A DNA stretch of 62,568 nucleotides, counting the filler, from Stramenopiles sp. TOSAG23-6 (Eukaryota): NCBI GenBank assembly GCA_900128565.1. It is 4 parts of 4 records of this genome, joined end to end, with 100 filler letters (N's around TTAATTAATTAA, not from the genome) between each part and the next. Parts side by side here need not be neighbours in the genome. Positions count along the whole stretch, not along the records: positions 1 to 15,661 come from LT636109.1; 3 more parts are not named here. One strand, written 5' to 3'. The first letter of the stretch is position 1; each line of letters opens with the position of its first letter. This document shows positions 1-62,568 of this stretch, piece after piece. Made by a program: the position numbers and the translations under genes. The notes beneath the pieces were generated by a model, which searched no databases, was not told the origin of the DNA, and saw only the letters and a program-made list of their open reading frames with translations.

Positions 1-161
1 ATTTATTTTTTTTTTCGTACGAAATTTTGTACCTAAACAAAAAAGATTTTTTTTTGAGTTTTTATTTCTATATGTTTCCATCATGAATTTCAAATTTATT
101 TTTTTTCATACGAAAATGTGTACCTAACACATTATACATTTTTTATTTTTTCACAATACAT
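1..161 (+). other. 3' part of a family intron ending CACAATACAT, with two internal modules
   Basis: Two T-run/CRTACGAAA/TGTACCTAA modules, then TCACAATACAT at 151-161 followed by an open frame. Confidence 0.75.
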
Positions 162-1195
162 GTCCTAACTGGTTTGATGAAAAAGATGAATGTGCACGAG
201 ACTTATTAACGACAGACTGTAGAGATAATCTACAATGTTCATTAGGATCATGCAAACCTCAATGTTATATTTGTTATTGGTTAGTAAAAAGTTTTCCTGT
301 TTTTGAAGAAATTTGCTCTCCAGTAACCCTAAAAAAAGAGTCATATACATCTGCTTTACAACAATCAAAAACTACATGGAAACTTAATGAAAAAGACTTT
401 TCAACACCAGATAATCCATATGAAAAACCTGGGTTAGGATCTGCAAAATTAGGGAAAGAATCATGGTCAAAATCACTGAAGTATTGTATGAGTATGTGGA
501 ATGAGTTTGTATACTCGCCAAAAGCAAGGTATACAATCCAATTTCGTGATTCATTTGGTAGCCATCCTTGGAGTGCTTCAACTGCATGTAAATGTATGTT
601 TTCATTATGATTTTTTTTATTATAAGAAACGCCCGATTCGTGTTTTCATCATGATTTTTTTTTTTAGTACAACATATTTTGTACCTAACGATAATGTATA
701 AAACAAACAATATTTTAGTACAATATATGTCTCGGTAAGTGTCCATATAATTCTTTTGAATCTTTAGATCTTTCTACACAATGTATTTATGAAGACAATG
801 CTGACCGAGCACTAAATTTATTTCCAGATTTGAATCCAGAATATTCAAATAGATACATTTGGGAAAAGAATCGGTATAATCCTGACCAGCAACAGGATAA
901 AAGTCCGTATGAACTACAAGTAGAATTTGCAAGATCAAAAAAACTAACAACACCAGATCCAGGTGCAGTGTACTCCACGTGGGATTTGACTGGAGCTGTA
1001 ACGGGAAAACAAAAAGCACAAAAACCTTTATTAGCAAGTGAACCAGGATTACATGCAATTGTTAATCCTCTTCTGGGAGTTCGACCTTGGGTGATGCTTC
1101 CTACTGGTGGTACAAATGATGAATCGACAATTAGAGATCCACAATTAAAAAATTCTCCTAGTAGTGAAGATGGCGTAAATGAGTTGGATACGTAA
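162..1195 (+). CDS. Cys-rich protein of unknown function, 5'-partial (exons 162-593, 729-1195)
   Basis: Open frame PNWFDEKDECARD...ASTACK. Removing the GT..AT intron 594-728 joins it to CLGKCPY...NPEYSNRY, the frame of ORF 830-1195. Confidence 0.65.
594..728 (+). other. GT-AT intron (family)
   Basis: GTATGTTTT...TTTTGTACCTAAC...CAATATAT; removal restores ACKCLGKCPY. Confidence 0.8.
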
Positions 1196-1285: not shown

Positions 1286-2853
1286 TCAATAACCTTCTAT
1301 ATTGTATAAATCTATATTTGAAGATTTTTCATCATCCCATTGACCATTTACTTCACCACCTGAATTAAACCAATCTGGGTTTTGATCCCTTCTATGTTGT
1401 TTTGGTATACAAGGACCATTCTGTGTACCAATAGATGATGCTGTCTCTTCTAAAGCCATACGCATACATCTAGCTGACCATATAGACATATCTCGAGGAA
1501 CATTTATGTATGATGAAAAAATATTTCAAAAAAAAAAATTTTGAAAATTTGTTAGGTACAAAATTTTTATAAAAAACAAAATTGGAATTTGAAAAAAAAT
1601 AACAACATACATTCTATCTCGGAGATATCGCAAAGCTGCATCAGTACCTGCAACACAAGAAGAAGGAGGAACGACTGCAGTATTTGTAAGTAAATTTGTA
1701 ATAACGCATCGGAGACCAACGTCTACAGATTTTCTCATCTCTTCTGACATATTATTGACTCCTCGCAAAGCCGCATCAATACAAGCGTTTCGATGTCGGT
1801 ATACCCTTGCCACAGCTAAAATTTTAGCATCATCAGGTTCCGGGTAACCACAGTCAATACAATGCTCTTTACTATCAACGATTGTCGGATGTACACATTC
1901 ATCAATATGTAGCTTACATGCCTGTTGGTATTTGTCTCCACTTTCATAACATCCACCCATCTGTGGTGGTAAATCATGAGCATGTGTATGAAAATCAGAT
2001 TGGATCGATATACACTGTGAAAAATATTTTTTTTTTTTGGATAAAAATTGGTTAGGTACAAATTTTCTTATGAAAAAAAATAATAATCTCGAAATATTTT
2101 GAAAAAAACGTACTTATACACAGGCCGACTTTCTAATGCTTCAAACCAATCCGAAATACCAGGGAAATCGTCTTTATTTCTTAGATGGAATCCTTTATAA
2201 TAATACAATGATGCGTTCATTCTTTCCATATATGGAACAAAAATTGTATCAACTATAGAAAACCCTGAAGATAGAAAAAAAGAGGAGGAAGAACTAGCGA
2301 GAACCTTATCAACTACTTGAGCAATACGAGTGAACTGAAGTCTTCCATTATTTTCATTGGTCTGCCTATAACACAACCATTGACACCAAGCTGAAAAAAG
2401 AGCCCGCTCTAACTTACGTAGTTTAATTACTTCTTTCGAATGCATTGATGGTGGAGTAACTGCATCACCCATTGTTCCAAAAGTCTCTTCTAACTTGGAG
2501 AGAATTACGTCAGACTCAGTGATGAGCTCTCCGTCTATTTCTAAAGCTGGAAGCATTCCCGAGCGAACTTTTTTTTTGAACCATCTTTCCTTATTACCAT
2601 AACAAAACATTGTTACTTTCGATACTCGGTATGGGACACGCTTTTCTTCCAACCAAAACCAAATTTTCTGACAGTATGGACACCATGCATGGTTATCTCT
2701 GTAGAGAGTGACTCGAACACTACTTTTACTTTTCCCAAACAAACGTAATCTAGACTGGGAAGAAGCAGGTCCATTTAACAAATCATGTGAAATGTTGCTT
2801 CTTTGTATGATTGACTTAATCGCATTCCATGCCAAAGGTACATTTGAAGACAT
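1286..2853 (-). CDS. Glutathione S-transferase family protein (cyanobacterial/algal type); exons 2853-2114, 2009-1611, 1505-1286
   Basis: Motifs [22 protein letters not shown] and SGMLPALE; spliced junctions [26 protein letters not shown] and [14 protein letters not shown]-terminal HRRDQNP. Confidence 0.85.
1506..1610 (-). other. GT-AT intron (family)
   Basis: GTATGTTG...TGTACCTAAC...CATCATACAT; removal restores [11 protein letters not shown]. Confidence 0.88.
2010..2113 (-). other. GT-AT intron (family)
   Basis: GTACGTTTT...TGTACCTAAC...CACAGTGTAT. The AT end gives the QSDFHTH frame; the AG 5 nt upstream does not. Confidence 0.85.
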
Positions 2854-3115: not shown

Positions 3116-6100
3116 ATGGATGGTTCTCTAAAAGGGTTAACTCAAGGTAATAAAGGTCACTTTGGTCCTAAAGCTGGAGCAAAAGCAGCGAAGAAGAAGG
3201 CCTATAAAGATAAAAAGGCTGGTAAAGTTGGTCGCACTGAAAATGAGAAGCGTCAAAATCACAAAGCATTTGGCGTTGCTAACTATGGTCGAGTTCACCG
3301 AACTATTCAACGAAATAACGATCTCCGTCACCGTACTGAGGTTGTTGGTGCTCAAGATCGTAACAATGCAGCTGAAAAACTTAATCCTCCCGTNGTTGTT
3401 GTTGTCATGGGTCNAGCTGGTTGTGGTAAGTCAACTTTAGTGAAGTCGTTAGTCAAAAAATGGACAAACCAAACGTTGACGGACATCCGTGGTCCAATTA
3501 ACGTCGTTGTTGGTAAAAAAAGAAGAGTTACTTTGTACGAGTGTCCTTCTAATGATACAAATGCTATGATTGATCTAGCAAAGGTTGCTGATTTAGTTCT
3601 ATTAATGATTGATGCAAGTTTTGGGTTTGAAATGGAAACGTTCGAGTTTCTCAATGTTCTTCAAGTACATGGATTTCCAAAGGTATTGGGAGTTCTCACT
3701 CATTTGGATAAATTTCGTGTAAGTAAACGTCTTCAGAAAAGGAAAAAGAATCTTAAAACACGTTTTTGGACTGAAATTTATCAAGGCGCTAAATTATTTT
3801 ATCTTTCTGGTTTGGTGAATGGAAGATATCCGAAAAACGAAATTCATAATTTATCACTTTTTGTCAGTCGCATTAAATTTCGACCATTGTCTTGGCGTAA
3901 TACTCACCCATATGTTCTTGTTGATCGTTTTGAAGATGTTACTCCATCAGGGAAGATTGTGGAGGATGATACCATTTCGAGAACAGTGACAATGTATGGT
4001 TATGTTCGTGGAACAAATTTGAAGCCTGGTATGAAATTCCATGTACCAGGTGCAGGAGATTTTTTTCTCAAAACTGTTGCAAAAATGCCTGATCCATGTC
4101 CTTTACCTGCAATAGGAAAAGATAAAGATGGTAAAGTAATCCGAAAGAAATTAGGAGAAAAAGACGTTTTGATCTACGCCCCAATGTCTAATGTACGTTT
4201 TCATCATTTTAATTTCAATTTTTTTTTCATAGAAAATTTTGTACCTAACAATTTTTTTTCCAAAAAAAAAAAAAATATTTTTTCACAATACATATGGGCT
4301 CTGTTTTGTATGACCAGGACGCTGTATATATAGATGTACCTAAAATTAATTTTTCTCATAAAAGAGATCTCGTTCAAGAAGAAAAAAGTGAAGAAGAAAA
4401 TGAGAATTCGGATTCTTCTGAAGAGGATAGTTCTGAAGATGATGATGATGATGATGATGATCGTGTTGGTATTTCACTTGTAAAGAGGCTTCAAAAAGTA
4501 GATGACGATTTGCAAGATAGCATGCAATCTTCCGGTATTAGTCTTATTCGTGGGTCAAAAGAAATTGTTGATGATGATTCGAGTGATGATTCTAATGATG
4601 ATTCAAGTGATGATTCAAGTGATGATTCTAATGATGATTCTAATGAAACTGAACATCCAAAGATGTCGCGAAAGGAAAAGCGGCAAGCTAGAGCAGCCTT
4701 ACATCAAAAGAATAAAGACAAAAATGATGAAAAAGAGATTAAAAATGAATATGATATCATTCGCTCTCAATTATCAAATCTTGATAAAACATTGAGTGGT
4801 CGTACAACAAAAACAACAACAAAACACGATGAAGATTCTAATTCTGTGACAGATAAAGGCATTGACTGGAAATCTGCGTTGGCGGAGTCTGCAGCTGCCA
4901 CTTACTTAGATCGTATTTGTAGTAAAGTTGATTTAATGAAACTAGTGTATGGTGATTACGAGAGTATTCGTTCGTTTGGAGGTAAACGCAGTAAAAGTCC
5001 AAGTAATAAAGACGATGTATCGCCTTCAAAAAAAATTAAAAATCTATTTGATGCTTCGGATGAGAGTGACTCTGAAGAAGATAATTTCTTTACATTAAAA
5101 ACAAAACAAAATAAGGATTGTGGTACACCATCCCAGAGTACATGTAAGAATGATGATATCGATGGATATCTCAATGCTGATGCATTTGATTGTTCTCGTT
5201 TTATTATGCATCAAAAAGATTTTCAATCCTGGGAGGAGCACGAAATCCGTGAATCAATACGTGATAAATTTGTTACAGGCACTTGGAAAGATCCAAATGA
5301 AGATTCAGATTCTGATGATGACGATGTATCAGACTCAGGTTCTGTATGTTTTATTTTTTTCAAATTCGTTTTTTTTTTCGTACGAAGTTTTGTACCTAAC
5401 ATTTTTTTTTTGAAATATTTTTCCAAAATACATGTGGCTTTAGGTGATTGGGAAGACATGGAAGCAGATGTTCTCAATACTGTAGCACGTATTCGTAAGA
5501 AAGCAAATGGTGAAGACGATGATTCAGAATGTGAAGGTGATTTTGAAGATATTGAAGAAAGTCCTACCTCAGGTATAAGTAAATCTCCTGATGTTGTTGT
5601 TGATGATGATGATTCAATGTCAGAAAGCGACGAAGAAGCAGATGCTACTGTCGATGATAACTATGAAGGTGCTGCGTCTAATGATACTAGTTGGCGTGAT
5701 GCTCGTGACAGGAGGCGGGCGGAGAAGGCCGAAGCTCTTAAAGCCCTCAAAACCAAAAAGAAGGAAGAATTCGATGCTGCTTATGATCGTGGTAAGGCAG
5801 ATGAAGGTCCTGAAGTTTTAGATGAATTTAGTCGTGTGATGGCTGAAGCAACGAATCAACAAGCTATAATTAATGCAAATGAATTTGAAGATGAAAATGA
5901 AGAAACTAGAATATTACTGGAAGGCTTTAAAGCAGGTATGTACGTTCGTCTTGAGTTAGAAGGAGTCCCGTGTGAATTTATTAAACATTACAAACACAAT
6001 TCGCCTATTATTTTGGGAGGTCTCCTGGCACACGAACAAGCTTTAGGTCTAATGCAAATTCGATTAAAGGCTCACCGCTGGTATCCGAAACGTTTGAAAT

Positions 6101-7266: not shown

Positions 7267-7334
7267 TTATACTATAAAAAAATATTTAGAGAAGGTAGTT
7301 GATATTGCGTCATTTATTTATTTATTTCATATCA

Positions 7335-9472: not shown

Positions 9473-12127
9473 ATGTTCTATAAAAATGGTCAGGAAATTT
9501 CTGGTAGTGATCGAAAGCCCTTTTCAGAGTTGTCCCCATCTAATGAAGCGTGGGGAAAGAATGTTTCTTCAGGTTATGGTTCACAAAGCGTCAACAAGAA
9601 AAGTTCGTGGGAGCCTGCATATTTACAGAAAGTTGCATCTAGTATAGGTATTATTCCACAATCTTGGCGGAAAAATAAAAAGATATCTGTAGAAGAGAGA
9701 ATGAAAAGAAACAAAATTAGAGGTTCAATTACAAAAGGTTTTGCTTTGCTTCGAAAGTTGCAACGAACTCGAGAAAATATTTCAGCGCGTCGCCGATTTC
9801 TGCTGTGGAAATACAACACTGGTGAAGGCCACATACCCAAACAGCGTTCAGCGTTATCTCTATTTCTTTTCGGCGGAGGTTCATCCAATGAAAAATACTC
9901 GAACTTTTTACTTTCAAAAAAAGAAACAACAAAAAAAAGAAAGCCCTTGCAAAAATCCAATGAAAAATCCTCGATTTTTTTACTTTCAAGAAAAGAAACA
10001 ACAAAGAAAAGAAAGCCCTTAAAAAAAGTATTATTTTCTCCGCAGAAAGGGACATTTCCCCAAACAAACACTACTGTAGATTCCCAATCAAAACTAAATT
10101 GTCCAGTAGAAGAATCATCTTCTCAAGAACGCCATTCATTATTATCATCCTCAAATCGACTTTATTTGACATTATTATCATTGACTTCGAAAGGTGTTAC
10201 TATTTGCGCCTTGGACAAAGGGAAACAAGCGATTTCGTTATTGACTTTATTATGGCGCATACTCAGAGTACAAAATGAATTACGAAAAGGTAGATTTGGT
10301 AACAGTAATAAGACCTCAATACGAGGTGTTGCTCAATTAGTTGGATTGTGGGTCGCACTCGCTGTGGCAGAAAAAATAGGACGATCTCTTCCACTTGGAA
10401 AACTTCGAAATCAGTGGCAAAAGAAAGCTTTTTTGTTAATTAGCCCAGCTAAAAGAAGAATCAGCCTCTCTTTACAATATGTCAATAGAATTGTTCATAC
10501 AATACAAACACCTGCAAAGAAAATATTCCAAACGCCATCACGAATATTTAATTCACTTTGGTTAACAAACACTAAAAACACTACACCGAATGATCATCTA
10601 ACACCTATTATGAACAATAGTTTTAATTGTATAATGACTACAAAAGATGATATAGCCCCGGTATCGAGTAAAACCACAGGGTTTGATTCAAGTAGAAATT
10701 CTCGTATAACACCACGAATTCATTTCAACGACCTTATATCGACTCCGATACAGTTTCGACATTTTGAATCTCCAGATGTATTAGGTACGAAATGTGGTAC
10801 AAATTCATTTTCAAATACTACAATCAACAAAAAAATCATTATGACACCTCTTGTAGCCAAAATACAATCTCTTGGGTGTAATATCAGAAAGCCCCTATAT
10901 GAAGAAGCCTCGGCTCTTTGTATTCAACGAAGTTGGAAAAATTATAAAAAAAGGAAAAATAGTATAGTTATAACAGATACAAATAAAACATATAAATCAT
11001 CTAAAACACCTGCATCAAAGTATCCTCATACACCAAGAACTGTCACAACTGTTGGATATTATACACCATGTACGTTTTATATGNANTTCTNANTTNANGN
11101 TTTTTTTTTCATACNAANTTTNGTACCTAACAATTTTTTTTTTTTTAAAATATTTTTTCACAATACATTCTCATTGAATAAGAAACGTCGCATACTTCAT
11201 CAACTTCGAACTACAGTAAAGAAACAAAAATACAATTCTGCAGTGTGTAGTATCATTTCTGGATGTGCTTATGATTCAGATGAGGAAAATGCTGATATTT
11301 TAGGACCAATTTTACTAAAAAAGCGAGAAGATGTTGAAAAATTGGAAAACGAATGGATGAACATTTGGAATGAAACACGAAAAACGCATAAAATACGTGA
11401 AACACAAAAACAACATTCTATGAAACAAGTTAAAAAAAAATATATATTTTCAGTATCGGAGTTTGTTTTACTATTGAAAAAAACGCGCAATTTTATTTTA
11501 TTGTTGTGCTTATCCATTGTTTGTTTTTATATAGTAATATATACAAATTGTAGAAGCTCATTTGAAACTGTGGTAAACGAGTTGGATGTATTGGAAAACA
11601 GAATTTCAAAACGTTCAGCAAATGAAAATGTTAAAGACATTTCATTTCTTATTGCCATGAAGACGATTGCTGTACCAATGCTTAGTAGTTGTGCGTCTAC
11701 ATTAGGGATATTTTCGTACTTTGACAAATTTGGTTCGATTGTAACTAGTGTATTAAATAATAGTAGCAAATTAGATGAGAATAGAAACAGGAATATTGAA
11801 AAGGTAAATGGGAGATTTCTACTTGATAAAAGCGTAACAGATGCTTCCAGTATAGCACAAAAATATATCGTTCATCCTTTTCTATTTATAGTATTTCACA
11901 CTTTATCAATAACAAATGTAATGATTATAACAACTGGTACATTAGCACAAAATGTTTCAGAGTATGTTCATATTGTATCATATAATCTGACAAAATTCAT
12001 GGAAAAACAAATTTTACCTTTTATTAATTCATACAATACGAGAGTATTAAGTACGTCAGTAAGTATATTCGTAGTATCCATTTTTATTAGTCTACACATT
12101 TTTCAACTTCGAGCTCGATTTAGTTAG
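9473..12127 (+). CDS. Unknown protein with an IQ-like motif and C-terminal hydrophobic segments (intron 11070-11168)
   Basis: 884-codon ORF; ALCIQRSWKNY IQ-like motif; contains an in-frame family intron. Confidence 0.65.
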   Translation: MFYKNGQEISGSDRKPFSELSPSNEAWGKNVSSGYGSQSVNKKSSWEPAYLQKVASSIGIIPQSWRKNKKISVEERMKRNKIRGSITKGFALLRKLQRTRENISARRRFLLWKYNTGEGHIPKQRSALSLFLFGGGSSNEKYSNFLLSKKETTKKRKPLQKSNEKSSIFLLSRKETTKKRKPLKKVLFSPQKGTFPQTNTTVDSQSKLNCPVEESSSQERHSLLSSSNRLYLTLLSLTSKGVTICALDKGKQAISLLTLLWRILRVQNELRKGRFGNSNKTSIRGVAQLVGLWVALAVAEKIGRSLPLGKLRNQWQKKAFLLISPAKRRISLSLQYVNRIVHTIQTPAKKIFQTPSRIFNSLWLTNTKNTTPNDHLTPIMNNSFNCIMTTKDDIAPVSSKTTGFDSSRNSRITPRIHFNDLISTPIQFRHFESPDVLGTKCGTNSFSNTTINKKIIMTPLVAKIQSLGCNIRKPLYEEASALCIQRSWKNYKKRKNSIVITDTNKTYKSSKTPASKYPHTPRTVTTVGYYTPCTFYMXFXXXXFFFIXXXVPNNFFFFKIFFHNTFSLNKKRRILHQLRTTVKKQKYNSAVCSIISGCAYDSDEENADILGPILLKKREDVEKLENEWMNIWNETRKTHKIRETQKQHSMKQVKKKYIFSVSEFVLLLKKTRNFILLLCLSIVCFYIVIYTNCRSSFETVVNELDVLENRISKRSANENVKDISFLIAMKTIAVPMLSSCASTLGIFSYFDKFGSIVTSVLNNSSKLDENRNRNIEKVNGRFLLDKSVTDASSIAQKYIVHPFLFIVFHTLSITNVMIITTGTLAQNVSEYVHIVSYNLTKFMEKQILPFINSYNTRVLSTSVSIFVVSIFISLHIFQLRARFS
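11070..11168 (+). other. GT-AT intron (family), 99 nt, in-frame
   Basis: GTACGTTTT...GTACCTAAC...CACAATACAT; contains several ambiguous bases. Confidence 0.8.
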
Positions 12128-12267: not shown

Positions 12268-15200
12268 TCATGAAGTTCCTGATAAAACCATCCACATATT
12301 ACGACACAAAGATGCTTCCGTTCGCACCGCTCGTTTTTTATCATTCAATACAGGGACGAGCTCCTTTACCACTCGGCGTCCCAACGGGTGGATTTGATGG
12401 TATGGTAGTAGTCGTATTGTTTTGATACAACGACACGCCTGCATACGAACTTTAGCTGTGACACCATTACAAGCAAGAAATAAAAGTGAAGAAGTCACTG
12501 AATCAACATGAGTAGCGATTGCATTCAGAGTCCGCATTCTAGCATCTTTATTAATATTTGATTCCTTTTGATCTGTTGGATTGGAATGAGTCAAATCTGA
12601 ACTAAATGAACGATGTTTTCGAGTTTTTCGTGTATCCATTGGAACTATAGTTTTCTTTGCATTAAGCAAAGCATCAAAACAAACTAATGCAGCAGAACGC
12701 ATAGTAATATCTATATGTTTGTCAGTTTCGCTAGATTTATATTTGGTGCCACCCAAAGCTTGTAAGAGCAAAGGCATTGCTTGTGACATTTCACTATTAG
12801 TAGTGGCACTTGGCATATTCGAAGTTGAATTTGTAGCAAATTTCTTACCTAACGAATTTCCCCCCAGCATTTTACTCACAAATATTGTACTAGGAATTTG
12901 TTGAAAAAGAAGTACGATTGCCAGAAGTACAGGATCTTGTACATCTCGCAATTTTGATTCAGAATCAAATAAAGATAATAGTTTAGTATATATATACTGG
13001 AAGTACTTCTGGCGGTATAAAACACGAATTCTAGCCCCTGTACATCTCTTTAAACAAGATGGTCCAGACACTTCTACATTTGAAATGATACATCCAATGT
13101 TATGCACGGCTTCTTTCCTAATTTCACTACAATGAGTTTCGGTATGTTTCGTTGTTTTACAAATATATGAGCACATCAAGTCGATCAGTGAAGTAGTCAA
13201 TGTATGGCTCCTCATAGCTAATGATTTAGCAACCCAAGATAAAGTTCGCATCGCCTTGGTACTATTTCTATTTTTAGCAGAAATCAATGATGTTAAACAA
13301 TGTACCACATCCGCTAAAATTGTTTCTAACTCAGTTCCTTTTGGCAACTTATTTAAAATCCCAGCTAACGTTTCTGCTGCTGAATTGGTAATTTTTTCAT
13401 CTGAAATAGAAGAGACTGATAATTTAAGTAAAGCCATAATCCCAGAAGATAATTGATGTGAGTCGTCCCAAAGATTTGATGATGTCGAATCATTCCCACG
13501 AAATACTTTTACAGCGCCAATAACTGAATGAACCAAAAGCATCAGCTGTAACTGCGACTTTGAGGATGTACTTTCTAAGGTTTCGATACCAAAGCCAGAA
13601 TGTTTATTATTTTTTACCAATAGACTGAATACAGTATCAACTAAATCCCATTGAGTAGATTGTGTCGAATGAACTGTGATTATATGCAGTATGGACGTAA
13701 TATGCGACATAATTTGAACTTGATTTCTATCTGTTTTATCAAACTCATCGGTTAATGCTCCATTATTAGCTAGTTCCACAAGAGATTCTATAAGAATGTA
13801 TGCAAGACTCTTTTGATTATTTCCAGCGCAAACTACTTTTGCTGAGGTGATTGACTTCATTAAATTTGATGCACTACAATCAGTTTTGCTTTCTTTTGAC
13901 AGACTTTTAGTAGACAGTTTTGTCGCTGCTTCAGCAATGATACAATGTAAAGCTTTAATAACAGCAGCAGCATCGTCACCACTAGCTAAACAACGGCGAG
14001 TATATTGATTCGAAACTTTCGTTTTTTTATGTGGAGAATATACTGTATCATCAGCCTTTGTAGCCTTTGTAGTATGTAACATTCTTTTTAAGAAAAAAGG
14101 TAATACAATATCAAATACGGAAGGTATTACACAAAGCTGACATAAAGCATTAAGTGAAGTTCTACTTGGTAAAGATGAAATTAATTTTGGTATAGCAAGA
14201 TCTATAACCATTTTTAAGTACATTTTGTCACATTTTGCCAGAGATAGGATTGTTAAACATGAATTATTTCTTAATTCTTTATCATCTATAATACGTTTTA
14301 CATCATTCGACGTTTGAATTATTGAAACATTTTCTGTACTGTTTCCCAACACTACTTGGACATTTTCTGTACTGTTTCCCAACACTACTTGGACCATAAT
14401 TTCAATAATCGTTTCAACGGACTCTTTTTCAAGAAGGGGCGATGAAGGTAATAAAAGTAATGAACACAAACCACGCAAACCTGCTTTTCTTGTAGCTAAT
14501 ATTGAATCTTTATGATTGGTTACCGTTTCCTGTTTCAACAAAGAATCATCATCATTATTATTACCTGTACAAGAACTACTAGAATTATCAGAATTATTCT
14601 TATTTCTGCCACAACATCCGCTATTTTCTGTAGGATTCGTCTTCTTTTTTTTACAATTATTCAGTGTATTTCGTGTTTCATGTGATAAACAATACGCCGA
14701 CGAAAATACAAAACGTAAATTATCTATAAATGGTGTAATAGGATTTTTCATTACACCCACATCAATTTCAGAGTCCATTTCAGATACAATATCTGCAAGA
14801 AATTCAATCGACGATCGATATACAATAAGATTTCCTGTTTTTGATTCTGTTGGCATTGCAGACATGGATTATGAAAAAATATTTCGAAATGATTTTTTTG
14901 TTAGGTACAAAATTACGTACGAAAAAAAAAATTCAAAATTGAAATGAAAACGAACGTGCAATGATCAAGGAACGAAGGGACGACAACAGGAATAACTCGA
15001 GCAAACGCTGTACACGACGCACTAGCAATAGCTCGTAACACACGGACAGAACATCGAGCATTCAAATGAGTTAACCTAACTATTTTTGTATTTTTTTTAT
15101 CATCACAATGACTACTATTAGATGTATCTGTATCAATTTTCATTCCATTAGGGTTAGGGTCATCAGACACTGGAGAAATTTCTCGACAACACCGTTTTAT

Positions 15201-15620
15201 TAAAGGGTTACAGAAAGTATTCCAAGCTTCTTCTCCAGAATGCATCGATATAGAAGACACTAGAGATTTCGTGATGATTTTTGTCAAAACACGAATTGTA
15301 TCCAATGTAGAATGAACCACATTTGACTCATCACCAGTAATTGATTCGGTATATAAGACACTTGCTAATTCAGGCAATCGTATGTATAGTGAAAATATAT
15401 ATATATTTTTTTTAGTACAAAAAATTCGTTAGGTACAAAATTTATCTACGAAAAAATAATATATTTGACATTCATGATGAAAACGTACAAATGCTTACAA
15501 AAAGATACTACAGAAAATCCGCTATACCCTGAATTAATACAATATTGCAACGTCTGTAGAGCATCAAGTTGAGCACTAATGACATTTGCTTGAATTTTTT
15601 CAATCAATAATTGAATCACC
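12268..15620 (-). CDS. MMS19: MMS19 (cytosolic Fe-S assembly HEAT-repeat protein), 5'-partial; exons 15620-15489, 15381-14956, 14863-12268
   Basis: C-terminus VRMQACRCI..LPYHQIHP...VVKELVPVLNDKKRAVRTEA...RNMW; upstream exon LLIEKIQANVISAQLDALQTL. Confidence 0.85.
14864..14955 (-). other. GT-AT intron (family, GTTCGT donor variant)
   Basis: GTTCGTTTT...CGTACG...TGTACCTAAC...CATAATCCAT; joins LDHCT-SAMPTE in frame. Confidence 0.82.
15382..15488 (-). other. GT-AT intron (family)
   Basis: GTACGTTTT...TGTACCTAAC...CACTATACAT; joins CKHL-RLPELAS. Confidence 0.82.
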
Positions 15621-15661
15621 ATGTATTTTGGAAAAATATTTCAAAAAAAAATCGTTAGGTA
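15621..15661 (-). other. 3' part of a family intron, truncated by contig end
   Basis: TACCTAAC...CCAAAATACAT followed by an MMS19 exon. Confidence 0.75.
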
Positions 15662-18082: not shown

Positions 18083-21000
18083 TTATTTTTCATTTGTAAT
18101 TCTTGCTGAGGGGGTACAATGTCTTTCTAGATATAACAACTGTTCAACTTCAAAGCAAAAATCTAGTTTTTCTCGTCCAAATTTATCCTCTAAAATTGTT
18201 TTAGTATCTTTGTGTTTTTGATTATGCAGTAAAAACTTTCGGATGTCAGTATACAAAACTCCTTCACGACTTCTCAAGTCATTTTGAAATCTTTCAATCT
18301 GCTCATAATTAATACCGAGAAGCGGCGTATGATCACCTTCTGGTAAATCTGAAACAGCAACTGCAGCAGATGCTTCACCACCAATTGTTATATGCCGTAA
18401 CTGAGCAAGGACTTCAATGGCATCGTCATCAACTTGTGTCTTTCCATCATTCTCAAAATCATCACTATAGAGTCCGCCAGCTTCATCTTCGTCTGAATAC
18501 ATGTCATCATCATCGCCGCTGTCCATATATGATGGTGAAGAAGGCCTAATAACAGATCCATTCTTTTTATCTACATTTGTCAAATATCCTTCATTTCGTG
18601 TAGATTGTTTCTCATCCACTGTATTTTGTGCTAAGGATTTTTCTTTACTAGGAGAAGTATCTATGGATGATGAGGGAATTCCATTAATATTTGTGGATCT
18701 TTGTTTTGCTTCAGGTGATGATCGTCCACCTCTTCCACCTACTCGAATTGAAGTTCGTTGACGTCCGCCGCGTCCTGATAATGATCTTCGATGTCCTCTG
18801 CCACCAAAACTTTTACTACTCCCACGTCCGATATTACTATTATTATTCGACGCAAACTGACCGTCAAAACTGAACATTGTAACTGGTGAACCAGGGTCAC
18901 CCGGAAGACTTTGGGATTCTAACACTGCAACAGCAGCAGCGGTACCAGCTGTCCCAGGACTTATTACAGGTACATGTGCATCTATTTCATCGTAGGGTGA
19001 GTAACAACTTCCTCTAGGCGATGGATTTATCGGTCTTTCGTCAGGATTAATTAAATATGAAGGCCTTTTATAAACATACTTTTGCTTTGAATCCGTAATG
19101 TACGAAAAATTTGAACCTTTATTTTTTGCTTCTATATGAGCCATATATTTTGCTGACTGTGATTTAGCTTCGAAAATAGGTTTTTCCTCATTCACTGTTG
19201 GAATCTCATCGACTCCAGCAGAATCATTAACTTTATATTTACCACCAATTGAACCATGTATTGGTCTATCATCATTCGGATCATGTCTTCGAATTATTCT
19301 TTGTCCTCTCTTATTTCTATTATTTTGTGATTCTTTACCATGTACGAGCACAAATTGTTCATCTGGATTTGAGGATTCTCTAAAATCTTCACATGTATTG
19401 TGAAAAAAAAATTTTTTGTAAAATTTGTTAGGTACGGAATTTCGTACGAAAAAAAAATAAATTCGAAATTGAAAAAAATAAAAGATACATGTTTCATTAA
19501 AAGGATCCTTGCCATCTTTGGTAGAAACATAATCTACACTTCTACGAAAACCGTTGTGATTGGGGGAACTAGAGGAATTCGTTGGCGAAAGTGTTACATC
19601 TGGATTAAATTCTATCGATGCATACAGACTTGCATCGGTTTCTGTTTTTGCTAACGTATCACTCGGCAAATTCAAGTTTGAATCTGGACCAAATTTTGTA
19701 CATGACAGACTCGCAGTACTTAGGTCACTCATTGGAAAAGGGTCATCCGAATTTCCAAATGGCTCCTTATTTTGACCTAAATGTATATTCTTTGATCCCG
19801 CAGCTGTCATTGAAGTAATTGTGATAGTATTCATAGTATCCTTTGACTTTTCATTTAATTTAGACTCCACATTGCAATCAGCTGCAAAATTTAACCCGGA
19901 TCCTGTACTTGACCTAAACATTCGCCGTTTTCGCTCTGCAACTGCATTACGATTTTTAGTCCCTACAGATAGTGTCACAGCTTTTAGCTCAGCTTCACGT
20001 AATTCGCGAGCCAGATCTTTTGATCGTTGTTTTCTCCGTCTCGCTCTCTCTGCCGGAGTGAGCATTACTAGCAAATGTCTTTGCTCTGATTGGCCATTTA
20101 CTTTGGATTCAGATATTTTATTCTTATTTATTTTATTCCTTTTCGAATTCATTTTTGATACTTTTCTCAACTTTTGCCCTATTGAACCACCAGTTCTTTC
20201 TAATTCAGCAATCTGGTTCCTAATGATAGGTGTAGAAAATATTTTTGCGTAGTCTGCTCTTTGGTTTGGATTTTTTTTTAATAAAGATGAAACGAGACCA
20301 CGCATACCTTGACTATATCCTTTCGGTAGACTTGTGTACTTTCCTTGAACAATTTGATATACTAAACCCAATAAATTACTACCTTTAAATGCATGACATC
20401 TTGCACACATCTCATAAAGGATACAGCCGACTGCCCATAAATCAGATTTATAAGTATGTATTTTGGAAAAATATTTCAAAAAAAAAAACTTAAATTTGTT
20501 AGGTACAATTTCAAAAAAAAAAACTTAAATTTGTTAGGTACAAACTTTCGTACGAAAAAAAATCGAATTTGAAAAAAAATAAAACATACATACGGTTTGT
20601 TTTCGCAGACCTCAGGGGACATATAATACGGTGTTCCAACGACAGTGCTTGCATGATCAAGAGTACTACTTAATACACGAGCAATCCCAAAATCACCAAG
20701 TTTAATTATAGAACGGTCGGTGATAAATACATTATTGGATTTCAGATCCCTATGTAAGATTTTTCGACTATGAATATAACGACAAGCCATGCAAAGCTGA
20801 ATAAACCAGTCCAATATTAAAGCTTCCTCTAAAGGCTGTTTTGCTGCTTTAATATACGCCGATAAATCTCCAACAGCACAGTATTCCATCACAATATGCA
20901 AATCTTCCCCATACATGAAACTTTCGCGGTAGTCTACAACGTTTGGATGTTTTAAAGTAGAAAGAAAAGTTACTTCTGCCAGGGCTTGCTTCCGTTCGAT

Positions 21001-22826: not shown

Positions 22827-24824
22827 TTATGGACTTAATGTTTTCATATAATGTCTAAAATCACTCATTGTGTTTTCTTCCCGAACGATCGGTTTAAATC
22901 TTGGTTGTGCGCTGTGTACGTTGCTTTTCGTCGGTGATAAACTTTTAGAAATTGATTTCTCTGTGTTTCGACTTTTACGAGTCGGAGAAATGGATGTTGT
23001 GAGGGATGGTGACGAACACCTATTTGTCCAACGACCATCAATTGTGCTAAAATCAGTCTTTTTATGATTGCTACTGTTAGAATTGAATAATATTGCTGTT
23101 TTTCTATGCCGATTTTTTCGACCTTGACCACTATAACTTTGTTTCGGTATATTCTTTAACTCACTATAAGAATTATTGTAATCTTTTTGTGATGTTTCTT
23201 GAAAATGTTCAACATGAGGAAATTTCTGCTCAATAGAATTTGAATACTTCTTAGTTATTCGTTTTTTTTGTCTCTTTGAGGTAATTTTCTTATTTAACCT
23301 TTGAAGCCGTTTTTCTTGTAATGAAGTTTTTAGTTTATCTAATGTTTTTCTTGATTTACGCCCAGTTTGTACTGACTCTGTAGAAACCCAAGCGGTACCT
23401 CTTTCTATTCTATTGCTAGATGTCTTCTTTGCACTACTGGGAGACTTTTGGGTAGTTTTGATTGATTTCCCAGTCAATTTGATTGTTGGGGAATTTTTCA
23501 GTTTTTGTTTATTTTCTTCGGTTACTCGCTTTGCTCGCATTAAAACAAGCATTGGATCCTGTTCCATAACTTTTGTGAGACCTTCAGCTACCTTTTGGTA
23601 CACATGGATTATGAAAAAATATTTCAAAAAAAAATCGTTAGGTACAAAATTTCGTACGAAAAAAAATAACTTTGTTTCTGGACCAAATTCTAATTGGTAA
23701 CAAACTCGTTTAGCGACTCCTGTATCATTGAAACCAGAGTGTTTCTGTACAGTCCAACCTCCATCTAAACGATCTATCACATCCATGCGAACTTCGATTT
23801 CTTCTAATTGCAACAAAGGTTGAATCGCAAACCGTACCAATTCAGTACTACTTGTAGTCCTTCCCTGTTTTGTACCAACATATACGCAACATCTATCATT
23901 TTCGGTGCCCCCATGAGCGTGTAAATCTAATAAAATGGAGTATCCAAATTTTGCCTCTGCTGCTTCCAAATGGGCTTTGATTTCTTCGTGGTATCTTTTG
24001 TATATTCGAGATGATGATGGACAAAGTGCATTATAAGGCGTTCCTTCTTGTCGTAAAATTCGTTGTTTTGTTCCACATTCGGAACGATTACAGTCGATAT
24101 ATCGTCGATGTGTTCGAAGACAAACAGTAGAAGGTCGAAATCCACCATTTGGATCATCCATTATATAATCGCGAATTCTGACTAAAGTTTTTATTGTATG
24201 AGCATCACAGCACTTGTTTCCATCACAGGACCGCTCTGCTAACTTTTTACCAAAATCATCCAAATAACGATTACCTCCATGAGGAGCTGTTAAAACAAGC
24301 GGACAATTGCCTCGTCGACTCACACCCTCACAAGACTGATCATCCCAGCGCGAACTCCCTGGTTTCGTTTCTAAGGGATTGATTCCTCTTGGGAAACCGT
24401 TATTACGAAATTTTGATACTTTTTCATTTTTTTTTGTAAATAAAGGACTATTTCTACCACTCATTTTTGGGCTACTATTACCACCTATTTTGGGACTATT
24501 TCTACCACTCGTTTTTGCAGTACTAATTATGGGACTACCAAAGGTATTTTTTTTCAATGATTTCTTCTCTCTAGGTGGAGATTTTGGTACAGAAATTTTT
24601 ATACTTTTGTCGTCAGCTGTCAAGCTTTTATAACGAAGCGTTCCCCCTGGAACCAAATACTCCAACACCACCCGATGCCCATCGTTTGACAAAACCCGTC
24701 CTTTCGCCCAGCACATTCGAGAATCGGAGTATACTTCAACCGGTGTGCCAACTTTTAGTTGTTCCTGTCTCTTCTGTTTAGTAGACGTTCTTTTATTCTT
24801 TAAAAACCTGTATAGTTTTAACAT
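22827..24824 (-). CDS. Protein with an N-formylglutamate amidohydrolase-like domain and basic low-complexity flanks
   Basis: PLVLTAPHGG, RRYIDCNRS, YKRYHEEI, ILLDLHAHG, YVGT, GGWTVQ, CYQLEF. Confidence 0.7.
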   Translation of the reverse strand: MLKLYRFLKNKRTSTKQKRQEQLKVGTPVEVYSDSRMCWAKGRVLSNDGHRVVLEYLVPGGTLRYKSLTADDKSIKISVPKSPPREKKSLKKNTFGSPIISTAKTSGRNSPKIGGNSSPKMSGRNSPLFTKKNEKVSKFRNNGFPRGINPLETKPGSSRWDDQSCEGVSRRGNCPLVLTAPHGGNRYLDDFGKKLAERSCDGNKCCDAHTIKTLVRIRDYIMDDPNGGFRPSTVCLRTHRRYIDCNRSECGTKQRILRQEGTPYNALCPSSSRIYKRYHEEIKAHLEAAEAKFGYSILLDLHAHGGTENDRCCVYVGTKQGRTTSSTELVRFAIQPLLQLEEIEVRMDVIDRLDGGWTVQKHSGFNDTGVAKRVCYQLEFGPETKLFFFVRNFVPNDFFLKYFFIIHVYQKVAEGLTKVMEQDPMLVLMRAKRVTEENKQKLKNSPTIKLTGKSIKTTQKSPSSAKKTSSNRIERGTAWVSTESVQTGRKSRKTLDKLKTSLQEKRLQRLNKKITSKRQKKRITKKYSNSIEQKFPHVEHFQETSQKDYNNSYSELKNIPKQSYSGQGRKNRHRKTAILFNSNSSNHKKTDFSTIDGRWTNRCSSPSLTTSISPTRKSRNTEKSISKSLSPTKSNVHSAQPRFKPIVREENTMSDFRHYMKTLSP
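23604..23670 (-). other. 5'-truncated family intron copy embedded in frame
   Basis: TTTTTTTCGTACGAAATTTTGTACCTAAC...CATAATCCAT, with no GTAYGT donor upstream. Confidence 0.65.
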
Positions 24825-26632: not shown

Positions 26633-28678
26633 ATGCATCATGAGACAATCCAATCATGGAGAGTATCACAAAATGAAGAAAGATACACAACTGAAATGAC
26701 GCGGTGGTATATTTTAGCTGTATTTTCTCTGGCAAACATGAATCAGTGTTTGACTTGGTTTACATTTTCATCTGTATCACTCGACAATATGGAATCATTT
26801 TTCGGTAGTAAGTCAAACGAAGACCCTTTCTGGATGCCTGGTATTAATAAATCAACAATTGGGTGGTTGCTTAATTGGGGTCCAATCATTGGTGTCTTAG
26901 TATTTCCATTGCAAGCGTGGTTAACTCAAAAAAAAAATGGTTGGTATACTTGTGTTGTGGTTGCCATCACACTAACGTGTTTTGGTAACATTATCCGAAC
27001 TATCCCAATCCTCTTTGGACCTCACGGCCGAGACACTCAAGCTGCTTTTATATGCTATCATTTTGGACAAATTTTGAATGCTGCTGCAGGGCCCTTTGTA
27101 ATGAGCGTTGTAACAAAGTTATCCTGTGTTTGGTTTGCTGAAAATGAGAGAGTCTTTGCTACTGGCATCGCAGTGACTTCAAATGGCGTAGGAAATGCAG
27201 TAGGATTTCTAGCAGGTCCTTATTTCTGTGATGGAAACATTGAGACACTATTCATGCTATGTCTTATACTTTCTTGCATTCCAGTACTTTGTGTTTTAGT
27301 TTTTTTCCCTATTTTGCCCAGAGAATTTCCATCCGAAGTTGCCAGACAAAGTGCAATAAACCCTAACCCTAACCTAAATAGACTGCATAACAGAGGAAGT
27401 AGAAAACAGTCTTCTCAAATTTCGAATGTACTGGACTCTCAATTTGAAGGAGATGAGCACTTGCTAGATAACTTTGAAGAACCATCAGATTCTATATTTG
27501 ATATGGCATCACCTGTTCGAAATCAAAGAATAGAAGAAACCCTTGAAGAAACACTAACTGACACTGTAAACCCTAACCCTAACTCTTTCTGGAATTGTTT
27601 GAGATTTTCTTTCCCTTCTACACAAAAAAAGGGCGTTGTATCATACCTTGTACTGGTAATAACAACAGGTATTGTTTCTGGAGTATGTTGCGCTTGGCAA
27701 GGCCTGTTACAGGTTATTCTAAATCCTGCTGGTATCAATGAAAAAACTGTTGTACGTTTGTTCTGAAATTTCAGTCTTTTTTTCGTACGAAATTTCGTAC
27801 CTAACAAATTTTACAAAAAAAATATTTTTTTTCACGATACATGGACTATTAGGGTTTTTAAATACAATTTCAGGAACAATTACGAGTATTATAGGTGGAT
27901 ATATTCTAGGGTTTTATGTACGTTTTACATATAAATTTTAAAAAACAGTTCATACCAAATTTTGTATCTAACGAATTAAAAGAAAAAAAAAATTAAAAAA
28001 CAATTCATACCAAATTTTGTACCTAACGAACTTGAGAAACAAAAAACTTCACAATACATTTCCGACGTCGTCTAAAAACTATCTTATTACTGAATTTCGG
28101 AATTTGGACATTTGCAATGATGTACAATTTCTTGATGAATTTCATTTTTTCTTTTTTTTTTTTCGTACGACATTTTGTACCTAACAATATCTTTTCTACA
28201 ATATCTTTTCACAATACGTTTGCTTTACTTTAGCATTACCTACTTTCATCTTTTCTGAGCCGCCATTTGAAGGTATGAATAAAATCGGATTGTTCTTCTG
28301 TTTGCTTCTCTCTGGTTCAACTCAAGGATTTTCAAATACCATGTATCTTTTCATCATTAATTATATATTCTCTCTATTATTTCACATTTTTTTCTTTTTT
28401 TTTCTAAAGTAAAAAAGAGTAAAAAAGAGTAAAAAAAAATGTGTACCTGACACTGTTTTTGACAAAATTGAATATATTTACCAAAAACATAACGTATGAA
28501 TTCACAGCCGAGTTGACTTGGCCAGTACAAGAAGGCTTATCTGCTGGAATTTTAGTGTCAATATTGAATGCATCAAGTTGTATTTTTATTTTTATTAATA
28601 ATAGCTTAAGTTACAGGTACATGTACGTTTCAATCATGACTTTCAAATTATTTTTTTTCGTTAAAAAAAAATTGAAAC

Positions 28679-28721
<43 letters not shown>

Positions 28722-28870
28722 ATTTGAAATTTGACATATATTTTCACAAATACATGAATTTCATTATGACATTGACTTGTTTTGCTGCACTTGTAAGCAT
28801 TTTGTTTGTAAAGGAGACGTATAATAGACCACTTAATCTCACTCATCGTAATATAATTGAAGAATCATAA
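26633..28870 (+). CDS. MFS transporter, SLC49 (FLVCR/DIRC2)-like; exons 26633-27751, 27843-27917, 28060-28121, 28220-28342, 28491-28622, 28756-28870
   Basis: RWYILAVFSL, LLNWGPI, GQILNAAAGP, WFAENERVFAT; spliced C-terminal half FRRRLK, YEFTAELTWPVQEGLSAG, KETYNR. Confidence 0.85.
27752..27842 (+). other. GT-AT intron (family)
   Basis: GTACGTTTG...CGTACGAAATTTCGTACCTAAC...CACGATACAT; joins KTV-GLLGF. Confidence 0.85.
27918..28059 (+). other. GT-AT intron (family) with duplicated branch module
   Basis: GTACGTTTT...TGTATCTAAC...TGTACCTAAC...CACAATACAT; joins GFY-FRRRLK. Confidence 0.85.
28122..28219 (+). other. Family intron ending in GT (GT-GT)
   Basis: GTACAATTT...TGTACCTAAC...CACAATACGT; joins FAMI-CFTLALP. 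Confidence 0.72.
28343..28490 (+). other. GT-AT intron (divergent family member)
   Basis: GTATCTTTT...TGTACCTGAC...CCAAAAACAT; joins NTI-TYEFTAELTWP. Confidence 0.8.
28623..28755 (+). other. GT-AT intron (divergent family member, no TACCTAAC)
   Basis: GTACGTTT...CACAAATACAT; joins YRYM-NFIMTL. Confidence 0.78.
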
Positions 28871-29975: not shown

Positions 29976-31305
29976 TCATATAGTATCATCAACCACATTG
30001 TTATCACTTCCTTGCTTTGATAGAAACATCACTGCACTTTCAAAAACTGTTAAATAATATGCTGCTTCTGGTGAGAGAGCAGAAGGACCAAGACAACAGG
30101 AAATTTCCCGGCACGCCAGTAATGTTCTTTGGAAAAATATTTCAAAAAAAAACCCGTTAGGTACAAAATTTCGTACGAAAAAAAATCGAAATTAAAAAAA
30201 AATAAAACATACATGGTTCTCGAAGTCTAGCTTGAGTCAAAACGTATAACTGCACAGGTAAAAAATCATCAGCACCCATTTGGAAGCCAGGGAACTCTTT
30301 GGAGTGATTTGTATAAATAGCCTGTGCACAACTAATAATGGCCTCTAATTTTGCACTAGGTAGTACAGATGCATCTATCATGCATAACAGGACAATGTAT
30401 TTTGGAAAAATATTTGGAAAAAAATCTAAAAAAATTTGTTAGGTACAAAATTTTTATAAAAAAAAAAATTCGAATTTGAAAAAAAAAATAAAACATACAT
30501 AGCGGCTCTATATCGTGTTTTTGAAGGTCTTTTTATATGCCAATATTTTTGAGGTTTTTTATATACTTTTTCACATTGTGCGTAAAGACTTCTATCGACT
30601 GAAGCAACTGTTGCTGTAGGACCAACAGAAGGACAAAGGCTTCTTCGAAGAATATATTTTATATTTCGGCGAAGGGGCATGAATATTGCTTCTTCAACTC
30701 GAAGTCTAATTCTATTTGTTACAACACGCCATGTATTGTGAAAAAACACAAAATCATTAAAAAAAAAAAAAGTTAGGTACGAAATATCGTACGAAAAACG
30801 TTTTAGATAAAAAAATTGAAAAAAAAATAAACATACCTGTAGTTGAGTTATTATTTGAATGGTAATCACTACACTTACTCGACTGAAATTCATTTTCATT
30901 GCCTTCAAAATGGCTTGTCTTCAATTTGGGGTCTCGGACAATAGTGTCAAACTGGTCATATCTATTATCTAAAATATACGCAGTCAATTGTTGCAAAAAG
31001 TCAGATAGTTTGTTTTTTTCAGAAATATGACTTTTCTGCTGAGATACTACAGTATTTTCATGAAGAGATGAGTTTTGTTCCTGTAGCTGGACTTGCAAAC
31101 TTTTCACCTGTGTTTTAAAAAAACGAATTCTAGCAGCTCCTTCATCGGAATGGACGTCATATAAAATCTTTCGCGTCGTCTCATCTATAATATCCAAAGT
31201 CCTTCCATTTAATATTTGATGACTTTCCTCTGCATTACTAATGTTACTCATGGTAGATGATGACAGACATGAAGAATCATGTTCACATAATAAATCTCTA
31301 TTTCC
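29976..31305 (-). CDS. VPS9-domain Rab5 GEF, 5'-partial; exons 31305-30837, 30730-30499, 30394-30213, 30121-29976
   Basis: Spliced YRAAI-VLLCMIDASVLPSAKLEAI, MGADDFLPVQLYVL, and PEAAYYLTVFESAVMFL. Confidence 0.88.
30122..30212 (-). other. GT-AT intron (family)
   Basis: GTATGTTTT...TGTACCTAAC...CCAAAGAACAT; gives the AYYLTVFESAV frame. Confidence 0.87.
30395..30498 (-). other. GT-AT intron (family)
   Basis: GTATGTTTT...TGTACCTAAC...CCAAAATACAT. Confidence 0.87.
30731..30836 (-). other. GT-AT intron (family)
   Basis: GTATGTTT...CGTACG..CGTACCTAAC...CACAATACAT; joins STTG-RVVTNRIR. Confidence 0.83.
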
Positions 31306-31375
31306 ATGTATTTTGGAAAAATATTTAAAAAAAAATCTAAAAAAAATTGTTACGTACAAAATTTCGTACGAAAAA
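31306..31375 (-). other. 3' part of a family intron, truncated by contig end
   Basis: TTCGTACGAAATTTTGTACGTAAC...CCAAAATACAT. Confidence 0.75.
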
Positions 31376-46919: not shown

Positions 46920-46984
46920 GTATGTTTTATTTTTTTCAATTTCTAATTTATTTTTCGTACGAAATTTTGTACCTAACGATTTTT
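46920..46984 (+). other. 5' part of a family intron, truncated by contig end
   Basis: GTATGTTTT...CGTACGAAATTTTGTACCTAAC. Confidence 0.8.
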
Positions 46985-62496: not shown

Positions 62497-62568
62497 GTAC
62501 GTTTTCATTATGAATTTCGAATTTATTTTTTTTTCGTACGAAATTTTGTACCTAACAAATTTCGAATT
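62497..62568 (+). other. 5' part of a family intron at the window end
   Basis: GTACGTTTTCAT...CGTACGAAATTTTGTACCTAAC. Confidence 0.82.

Follow-up and report, generated by a model that had tools for sequence, protein, structure and literature searches.

A family of introner-like introns with GT...AT ends in a stretch of stramenopile DNA

The introns considered here occur in a stretch of DNA from Stramenopiles sp. TOSAG23-6 (GenBank assembly GCA_900128565.1; 62,568 nucleotides (nt), referred to throughout as the window), where they form a family of similar short copies, among them the one at 4193..4293 that interrupts the gene for BMS1. On the evidence of the reading frames and proteins that they interrupt, these copies appear to be real introns with fixed GT...AT boundaries and a non-AG 3' end, and the explanation put forward here, which we hold with a little less than an even chance of its being right, is that they are a self-contained, introner-like GT...AT intron family having an insertion-site preference. 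Introners as such are known; what would be new is an introner-like family with a uniform non-AG (AT) 3' end. The source is, to judge from its DNA, apparently a compact, AT-rich marine eukaryote, the best named protein matches being to stramenopiles, and near-identical DNA occurs in metagenome runs from seawater as well as in two small runs of 2015. The window itself is gene-dense, with 35% GC, standard-code open reading frames (ORFs) of up to 1585 codons and about 15% of its length outside ORFs of at least 90 codons; the genes that carry family introns are conserved housekeeping genes with intact domains.

A census of the family was made using motif scans together with a profile built from the copies (nhmmer). 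The profile gave 32 matches at E<0.001, corresponding to 29 loci, or about one per 2.2 kb, with introns of some 90-140 nt; 24 of these are complete, while two have only the 5' part and three only the 3' part, the rest being lost at an assembly gap or where the window ends (Table 1). For most copies E lies between 1e-8 and 1e-14 (best value 1.7e-14), the alignment spans model positions 1-102, and identity to the consensus over 95 columns is 63-91%, with a mean of 77%. In order, the consensus blocks are GTAYGTTTT, a T-rich stretch with AAATTCGAATTT, then TTTTCGTACGAAATTTTGTACCTAAC, and finally a T-rich stretch closing with ATATTTTTYCAMAATACAT; the BMS1 copy, together with the AT before it, reads ...tctaAT/GTACGTTTTCAT...TTTTGTACCTAAC...ATATTTTTTCACAATACAT/atgggc (here and below a slash marks a splice junction), a shorter rendering of its 3' end being CACAATACAT. 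The 5' start is GTAYGT in 20 of 26 copies, and the branch-like A of a CTAAC motif lies 33-47 nt before the intron end in 24 of 25, and 60 nt before it in the remaining one. Likeness ends at the intron borders: beyond exon positions -3 and +2 the base frequencies of the flanks are close to the composition of the window. The consensus also holds two perfect 12-nt palindromes, AAATTCGAATTT and TTTCGTACGAAA (seen for instance at 30160-30200 on the minus strand and 62515-62550 on the plus strand), as well as the tetramer GTAC three times, and these account for the reverse-strand profile matches found at the same loci; we know of no splicing role for either palindrome.

The boundaries rest above all on what removal of the copies does to the coding sequence. 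When GT...AT is cut out, the longest frames on its two sides are joined in 22 of the 24 complete copies (21/23, p=1e-8, if the copy at 23604..23705, for which the donor was itself chosen by frame, is set aside), and retention of the intron would lead to a frameshift or a stop in 20/24. At two loci the join can be followed to the residue. In BMS1, where the AARP2CN and GTPase domains are encoded 5' of the intron and RIBIOP_C 3' of it, and where the best named matches are oomycete proteins at about 60% identity, the joined product reads ...APMSN/MGSVLYDQDAVYIDV, which contains the conserved MGSVLYD...; the upstream exon aligns with Chaetomium Bms1 up to ...APM followed by A or S, while the junction motif is found in 64 of 120 homologues, its spacing being identical in 63 of these 64 and the closest of them sharing the N-M pair. 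In the NEK-like kinase, the upstream exon stops at residue 202 of NEK1 (4apc) and the third residue of the downstream exon corresponds to 205, so that the join must fall between residues 202 and 203. A second BMS1 intron of the family behaves similarly, its removal being in frame (365 -> 610 codons).

Canonical AG ends were tried for both of these loci and rejected: in BMS1 the in-frame CAG at 4318-4320, 27 nt past 4293, would delete eight conserved residues (MGSVLYDQ), and in the NEK gene the next AG is out of frame. Nor do the copies in general terminate at the first usable AG, as canonical U2-type GT-AG introns would, the last two intron bases being AT in 25 of 27 (as the initial annotation had proposed), with one GT and one AG; in 6 of 25 copies splicing would have to pass over an AG that comes after CTAAC and before the inferred end. 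Because removal of GT...AT joins the frames and restores BMS1 and the NEK kinase residue by residue, these sequences would be real introns with a non-AG 3' end, and we infer that they are excised by the spliceosome; splicing would then be scarless, a further point on which the earlier proposal agrees with what is found. The opening 100 residues of BMS1 exon 2 found no match in the PDB, and the junction was settled using BMS1 homologues. As a separate observation on this gene, two BMS1 fragments of a relative (P0001 and P0005) appear nearly identical and diverge just after ...LSILP, where one goes on with the conserved DPIPLP and the other, which comes from a 679-kb contig, breaks off after GT; an intron, or an intron polymorphism, may be present in that relative after LSILP, at a position unlike that in the window.

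For copies flanked by AT there is an ambiguity of register, in that AT...AC, TG...CA and GT...AT would all yield identical mRNA. Only GT...AT can apply to every copy, since the nine of 26 that are not flanked by AT cannot be AT...AC. That the introns nevertheless belong to an AT-AC class, whether U12- or U2-type, with the exonic AT forming their first two bases, seems very improbable: for the 17 AT-flanked copies it would give the same mRNA as GT-AT, and an A...C terminal pair is a workable combination, but the other nine would then have to begin with CT (two), TT (two), AA, AC, GA, AG or TC. The U12 consensus, furthermore, has RTATCCTT at the 5' end and a branch site TCCTTAAC about 10-26 nt from the 3' end, and what is found here is GTAYGT at the 5' end and a branch-like CTAAC 33-60 nt from the 3' end, so that the 5' consensus, the branch consensus and the short branch-to-3' distance of U12-type introns are all absent. 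U12-type introns with a range of termini, GT-AT among them, do occur (Sheth et al. 2006, PMC1557818).

Turning to the flanks, AT stands directly before 17 of the 26 copies that have a 5' end, as against 10.3% of all GTs in the window (binomial p=2.1e-11); the enrichment described in the initial annotation, which counted 18/26, therefore stands. Taken position by position the exonic motif is graded, with C at -3 in 11/26 (42%, p=0.003), A at -2 in 20/26 (77%), T at -1 in 21/26 (81%), G at +1 in 17/27 (63%, p=2e-7) and T at +2 in 11/27 (41%), and the last four intron bases are ACAT in 19/27. Inverted ends of the form GTAT...ATAC, also described earlier, are present in part: nine of 26 copies start with GTAT, the exact inverse of ATAC, while 15 start with GTAC, in which three bases out of four are complementary, and two start otherwise. 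Inverted ends thus extend over 4 nt within the intron, or 5-7 nt if exon bases are included (CATGTA with TACATG), which applies only where the flanks fit; these lengths are to be set beside the at least 6 nt by which a terminal inverted repeat (TIR) is recognised.

Some indication of what happens beyond the window comes from metagenome data. A scan with the element core found a single related locus outside it (L001), which reads cAT/GTATG...ACAT/g and in which the frame is restored by removal. Among the loose ends of a seawater DNA run, the best supported lie two bases outside the 5' end of the element, where 35 contigs agree as far as the AT and then diverge, and one base outside its 3' end, where 26 agree as far as the G and then diverge; this suggests that the AT and G flanks are common beyond the window, these contig counts being without a denominator. 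Scans of genome contigs (8 loci) and viral contigs (2 loci) with a looser pattern gave only matches attributable to chance, as none of them fits the family model at E<0.01, and a metagenome scan with the protein of the MFS exon gave 47 pattern matches with no relative among them.

The motif (C)AT/G(T) resembles the classical proto-splice site MAG/GT except that T rather than G stands at -1, and the same exchange relates the CAT at the intron end to the classical CAG; in the RNA the intron closes with ACAU, which is in addition the reverse complement of AU/GU. The possibility, mentioned as an alternative in the initial annotation, that AT/G is this lineage's counterpart of AG/G fits the graded motif at least as well as the proposal that was given first, namely that a mobile element inserting at AT made a 2-bp target-site duplication (TSD). 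In this second scheme a non-autonomous DNA transposon resembling a miniature inverted-repeat transposable element would duplicate the AT lying in a CATG-like palindrome, and the downstream AT would become the 3' splice site, making splicing scarless. We consider it unlikely, while granting that much speaks for it: AT both precedes 17/26 copies and ends 25/27, C at -3 (11/26) and G at +1 (17/27) are symmetric about the AT, the inverted ends ATGTA and TACAT are present where the flanks are intact, the 35 and 26 seawater contigs just described part company at the corresponding bases, and TSDs or TIRs are present in 78.5% of those non-ascomycete introner families in which such features can be called (PMC9860276).

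What separates the two is whether the match between flank and intron end is particular to each locus. As Gozashti and colleagues have pointed out (2022, PMC9860276), a motif that every intron shares gives no means of telling a TSD from an insertion site, and their Methods call a TSD only where a position matches within loci but not between loci, a rule by which the present pattern is "ambiguous". In the window, the ratios of within-locus to between-locus matching at 12 positions (six per side) are 0.73-1.21, none of them significant, so that no position has a locus-specific match, and among the complete copies without AT upstream, 0/8 have a 3' dinucleotide equal to their own flank. It might be thought that the nine of 26 non-AT flanks represent older, decayed AT insertions, but this was rejected: identity to the consensus is 0.778 for the non-AT copies and 0.767 for the AT copies (p=0.93), and most of the flank changes required would be non-synonymous, which makes decay from an obligatory AT target a poor fit. 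The intronic inverted repeat is moreover only 4 nt long, and matches at three bases of four in the 15 GTAC copies. As to orientation, all 29 loci lie in the sense direction inside reading frames, and among them there is no antisense, intergenic or long copy, so that neither copies in both orientations, nor extragenic copies, nor an autonomous partner such as a DNA transposon should have, nor the long elements with the same ends once envisaged, are to be found in the window; two weak antisense matches (12825-12861 and 10803-10766, E of about 0.008-0.01) lie inside uninterrupted ORFs and were not counted. An AT duplication may have taken place, but the flank match is family-wide and never locus-specific, and in the form first proposed the duplication is not supported; of the mobile-element interpretation as a whole, what is supported is the repeated intron family, the AT end and splicing that is scarless at residue level in BMS1 and NEK.

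That it is a repeated family, rather than a set of introns that merely look alike, is a separate matter. All three long assembly gaps (N...TTAATTAATTAA...N, at 15662-15761, 31376-31475 and 46985-47084) lie inside or beside copies, which is evidently because the repeat broke the assembly (a shorter gap of 16 N at 43443-43458 has no copy nearby). The element is, moreover, highly repeated among contigs from seawater metagenomes: in one of the seawater DNA runs (X3) the bins that bear the element have summed contig depths of 1557-16360, as compared with 2-14 for 16 of 21 other bins and 20-44 for the other five, a summed contig depth not being a copy number, and the contigs listed for this run stop inside copies. 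Seawater DNA runs hold the same copies at the same sites. At the BMS1 site the ORFs of relatives are uninterrupted (53-64% identity; two such ORFs come from contigs 19 and 29 kb long), so the position of this intron would seem to be lineage-specific. Within the family, the type of 5' end co-varies with that of the 3' end (2x2 table 4, 6, 0, 15; p=0.017), GTAC starts being always paired with CAC-type tails and CCAAAAT tails being restricted to GTAT starts, and in several copies whole modules are duplicated. Copies fall in all three phases, as originally noted (10, 5 and 9 for phases 0, 1 and 2). The description of these introns as an introner-like repeated family is therefore borne out by the profile matches, by the co-varying end types and by the broken assemblies: introns similar over their whole length occupy non-homologous sites, 29 of them in 62.5 kb, and their similarity stops at the intron borders.

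It is against this background that one has to consider whether nothing has moved at all, and these are ordinary, possibly old introns kept alike by obligatory splicing signals of unusual length, as are the introns of intron-poor algae with strict signals. All the introns detected in the window do share the one architecture, no other type having been seen there, conservation is highest in precisely those blocks that form the 5' splice site, branch site and 3' end, and identity to the consensus is only 63-91%. The similarity nevertheless takes in the spacer palindromes AAATTCGAATTT and TTTCGTACGAAA as well, and neither the duplication of whole modules within copies, nor the co-variation of end types, nor the breaking of assemblies in the manner of a high-copy repeat, nor the uninterrupted BMS1 site in relatives would be expected on such a view, which we accordingly find improbable. 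A basis in a stable RNA hairpin was likewise rejected: six copies were folded and did no better than shuffled sequences (z from -1.12 to +1.53), with only a terminal helix of 5-6 bp, present in four of the six. A search of the window against Rfam found no match.

What the sequence shows is the kinship of the copies, the exact limits of excision, the non-AG end and the statistics of the flanks. Under the GT...AT family reading that we prefer, each copy would bring with it its own 5' splice site GTAYGT, a branch module TACCTAAC and a conserved 3' module TTTTYCAMAATACAT; the pre-mRNA would be cut at G+1 and after the final AT (GU...AU), AGs further upstream being skipped and the coding sequence restored. 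The intron itself would be the repeated unit, and new copies would land preferentially, not obligatorily, at (C)AT/G(T), the upstream AT being best read as a site preference because (C)AT/G(T) resembles MAG/GT and is the reverse complement of the ACAU end of the intron. Copying may have taken an RNA route, by reverse splicing followed by reverse transcription and recombination, as has been proposed for the introner-like elements of fungi, and we lean towards copying at the RNA level. A more far-reaching version, to which we give little credence, is that the whole intron complement of this organism is a single invasive GU...AU family, removed by a spliceosome that disregards AGs further upstream, whose ACAU end guides insertion by pairing with AU/GU, in a self-targeted reverse splicing akin to that of group II introns.

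A number of points weigh against the preferred reading, and some of them concern whether the introns are removed at all. In read mapping, where parts of the window without coverage are uninformative, no skip of about 100 nt is present among the 15 joints listed out of 396, the repeat having dominated the mapping output; contigs from the RNA library carry the element at high depth, and one of them passes unbroken from inside the copy at 28122-28219 into the exon, this ACGT-ending copy being also among the two whose flanking frames are not joined. The same missing junction reads and abundance in RNA-library contigs would speak for the elements staying in the RNA, either with elimination at the DNA level, as for the internal eliminated sequences of ciliates, or in dead genes. 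It would then be hard to see why long flanking frames should be joined in 22/24 copies, why the hosts should be conserved housekeeping genes with intact domains and why canonical GTAYGT and CTAAC signals should be conserved; the seawater DNA runs, too, contain the same copies at the same sites, and we regard this as the least credible of the possibilities considered.

Other adverse points concern the origin of the AT. Conservation of the upstream A (77%) and T (81%) is close to the mean over the columns of the element (79%), as expected had the AT arrived with the element and decayed alongside it. A transposon that duplicated AT would leave AT at either end, short inverted termini and, as expected of a staggered cut around the AT, a palindromic C-AT-G context, as are seen here. 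The sense orientation and genic bias of the copies are weak evidence against such a duplication, as they are reported also for TSD/TIR introner families (PMC9860276). It must be remembered, too, that the sample consists of one 62.5-kb window and one copy outside it (L001). Finally, we know of no direct in vivo proof of reverse splicing of spliceosomal introns.

Table 1 Copies of the intron family in the window. Rows for complete copies rest mainly on the frame test, those for partial copies on the nhmmer profile.
Feature	Position	Strand	Upstream	3' end	Remarks
Partial or tandem copy, window start	1..161	+		ACAT/g at 161	nhmmer
Duplicated 5' module	594..728	+	AT	ATAT	
Intron of GST-like gene	1506..1610	-	AT		
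Intron of GST-like gene	2010..2113	-	AA	GTAT	internal CAG to be skipped
BMS1 intron under study	4193..4293	+	AT (4191-4192)	ACAT	nhmmer E=1.7e-14
BMS1 intron 2	5344..5433	+	CT	ACAT	90 nt, open in frame; E=5.8e-13
Family intron	11070..11168	+	AT		
Intron of MMS19-like gene	14864..14955	-	AC	CCAT	starts GTTCGT
Intron of MMS19-like gene	15382..15488	-	TT		
3' part, cut by assembly gap	15621..15661	-			nhmmer
Intron of NEK-like kinase gene	19393..19488	-	AT		
NEK kinase-domain intron	20456..20589	-	AT		internal 35-nt duplication; join 202/203 of NEK1 (4apc)
Diverged 5' part (GTTTGT)	23604..23705	-	GA		donor picked by frame
Intron of MFS-transporter gene	27752..27842	+	TT		
Duplicated branch module	27918..28059	+	AT		
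Copy ending ACGT	28122..28219	+		ACGT	fails frame test; RNA-library contig reaches exon from inside copy
Diverged copy without CTAAC motif	28623..28755	+	AT		
Family intron	30122..30212	-	AT		
Family intron	30395..30498	-	AT		internal TAG to be skipped
Family intron	30731..30836	-	AG		
3' part, cut by assembly gap	31306..31375	-			nhmmer
Duplicated 5' module	40068..40204	+	AT		
Intron of DCAF15-like gene	44926..45027	-	TC		
5' part, cut by assembly gap	46920..46984	+	CT		nhmmer
Intron of EGF/teneurin-like gene	56596..56707	+	AT		
Family intron	58674..58762	+	AT	ATAT	
Intron of SNF2-like gene	61650..61744	+	AT	TCAT	
Intron of SNF2-like gene	61902..62025	+	AT	TAG	sole copy with canonical end
5' part, cut by window end	62497..62568	+	AT		nhmmer

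Several other features of the window deserve brief mention. Pairs of overlapping or adjacent ORFs at 33.4, 36.7, 42.4, 43.4, 60.1, 29.0 and 17.0 kb carry no intron signals; what they show instead is a simple change of frame, a tandem repeat or, in one case, a gap of 16 N. Repeats of this kind include an in-frame tandem array at 36700-37100 (+) with a 21-nt, Q/P-rich unit (roughly QQPTQQY), in which an internal frame change splits the ORF, and tandem duplications of about 50 nt at 33470-33560 (+), within an ORF, and of about 60 nt at 17050-17170 (+), downstream of a PAN-domain gene. A sequence of at least 36 nt, accatgGTATGTCTGTTGATACATTTGATCTCCATT, is found in identical form at 51548 and 51932 (+), 384 nt apart; it is an internal repeat of an ankyrin-repeat ORF and not a family intron. 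A telomere-like 10-mer, AGGGTTAGGG, occurs 13 times in the window with at most one mismatch (at 9303, 15150, 16140, 25251, 25269, 26480, 27361, 27571, 27577, 29476, 34546, 39248 and 39876), where 0.84 occurrences would be expected. Several of these are intergenic and lie beside A/T-rich runs, in L001 it is found downstream of the gene at about 2290-2330, and one loose end from the RNA library, at 25249, carries GGGTTAGGG repeats; the 10-mer could be a promoter or terminator box, or could represent interstitial telomeric repeats.

Among known systems the obvious comparison is with the introner elements of the algae Micromonas pusilla and Aureococcus, reportedly the subject of work by Huff et al. 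in 2016. There, too, many similar short introns occupy unrelated sites in a marine picoeukaryote, and splicing is scarless, with a motif of the flank repeated at the intron end. The algal introners have GY-AG ends, and many of them carry TSDs that are locus-specific and 3-9 bp long, TIRs of 6 nt or more, or both (PMC9860276), whereas the window family has an AT 3' end, a match to the flank that is only family-wide, and inverted ends of 4-7 nt. Fungal introner-like elements, which lack TSDs and TIRs, are biased towards genes and have been read as spread by reverse splicing (PMC9860276), are alike in that the repeated unit is exactly the intron, no TSD or long TIR can be demonstrated, and copies are genic and sense; their GT-AG ends are canonical, however, and the window family has in place of these an AT end, together with a strong insertion-site motif such as is not known to us from fungi. 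In Amoebophrya (Farhat et al. 2021, PMC7789003) inverted repeats of 8-20 nt form hairpins, and there are no consensus terminal dinucleotides; the likeness lies in repeated introns whose boundaries are not GT-AG, in short direct repeats overlapping the borders and in inverted-complementary ends, while the window family differs in its uniform GT and AT ends and in having no long hairpin (z of -1.1 to +1.5), the six copies folded showing neither inverted repeats of 8-20 nt nor a stable hairpin that would join the exons.

Introns with non-AG 3' ends have also been described outside the introner literature. Fritillaria borealis (PMC13326754) has, genome-wide, introns with 3' AT or AC and a U-rich tract, attributed to a modified major spliceosome, together with a duplication of U2AF; in that case, however, the introns do not make up one repeat family, their termini vary and even their 5' ends are not GT, in contrast to the single repeat and GT start seen here. 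No description of GT-AT intron families in marine stramenopiles was found in the literature searched, supplements lying outside the search, and the available part of PMC5778133 makes no mention of non-canonical introns.

Introners are the best current explanation of bursts of intron gain, and the described families, as well as the surveys made for them, assume familiar splice sites. A survey of introners from 2025 lists only AG and AC 3' sites in its curation, and discards families with unfamiliar sites unless these are confirmed by RNA; because only AG and AC are admitted where RNA support is lacking, annotation-based screens would miss a family such as that in the window. If the reading preferred here is true, a non-AG 3' splice site can spread genome-wide in the course of a burst of intron gain, and standard GT-AG gene prediction would mis-annotate such genomes. 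The combination of (C)AT/G(T) flanks with a CAT end would in that case amount to a natural experiment on why exon and intron ends mirror one another, whether by duplication, by site preference or by pairing.

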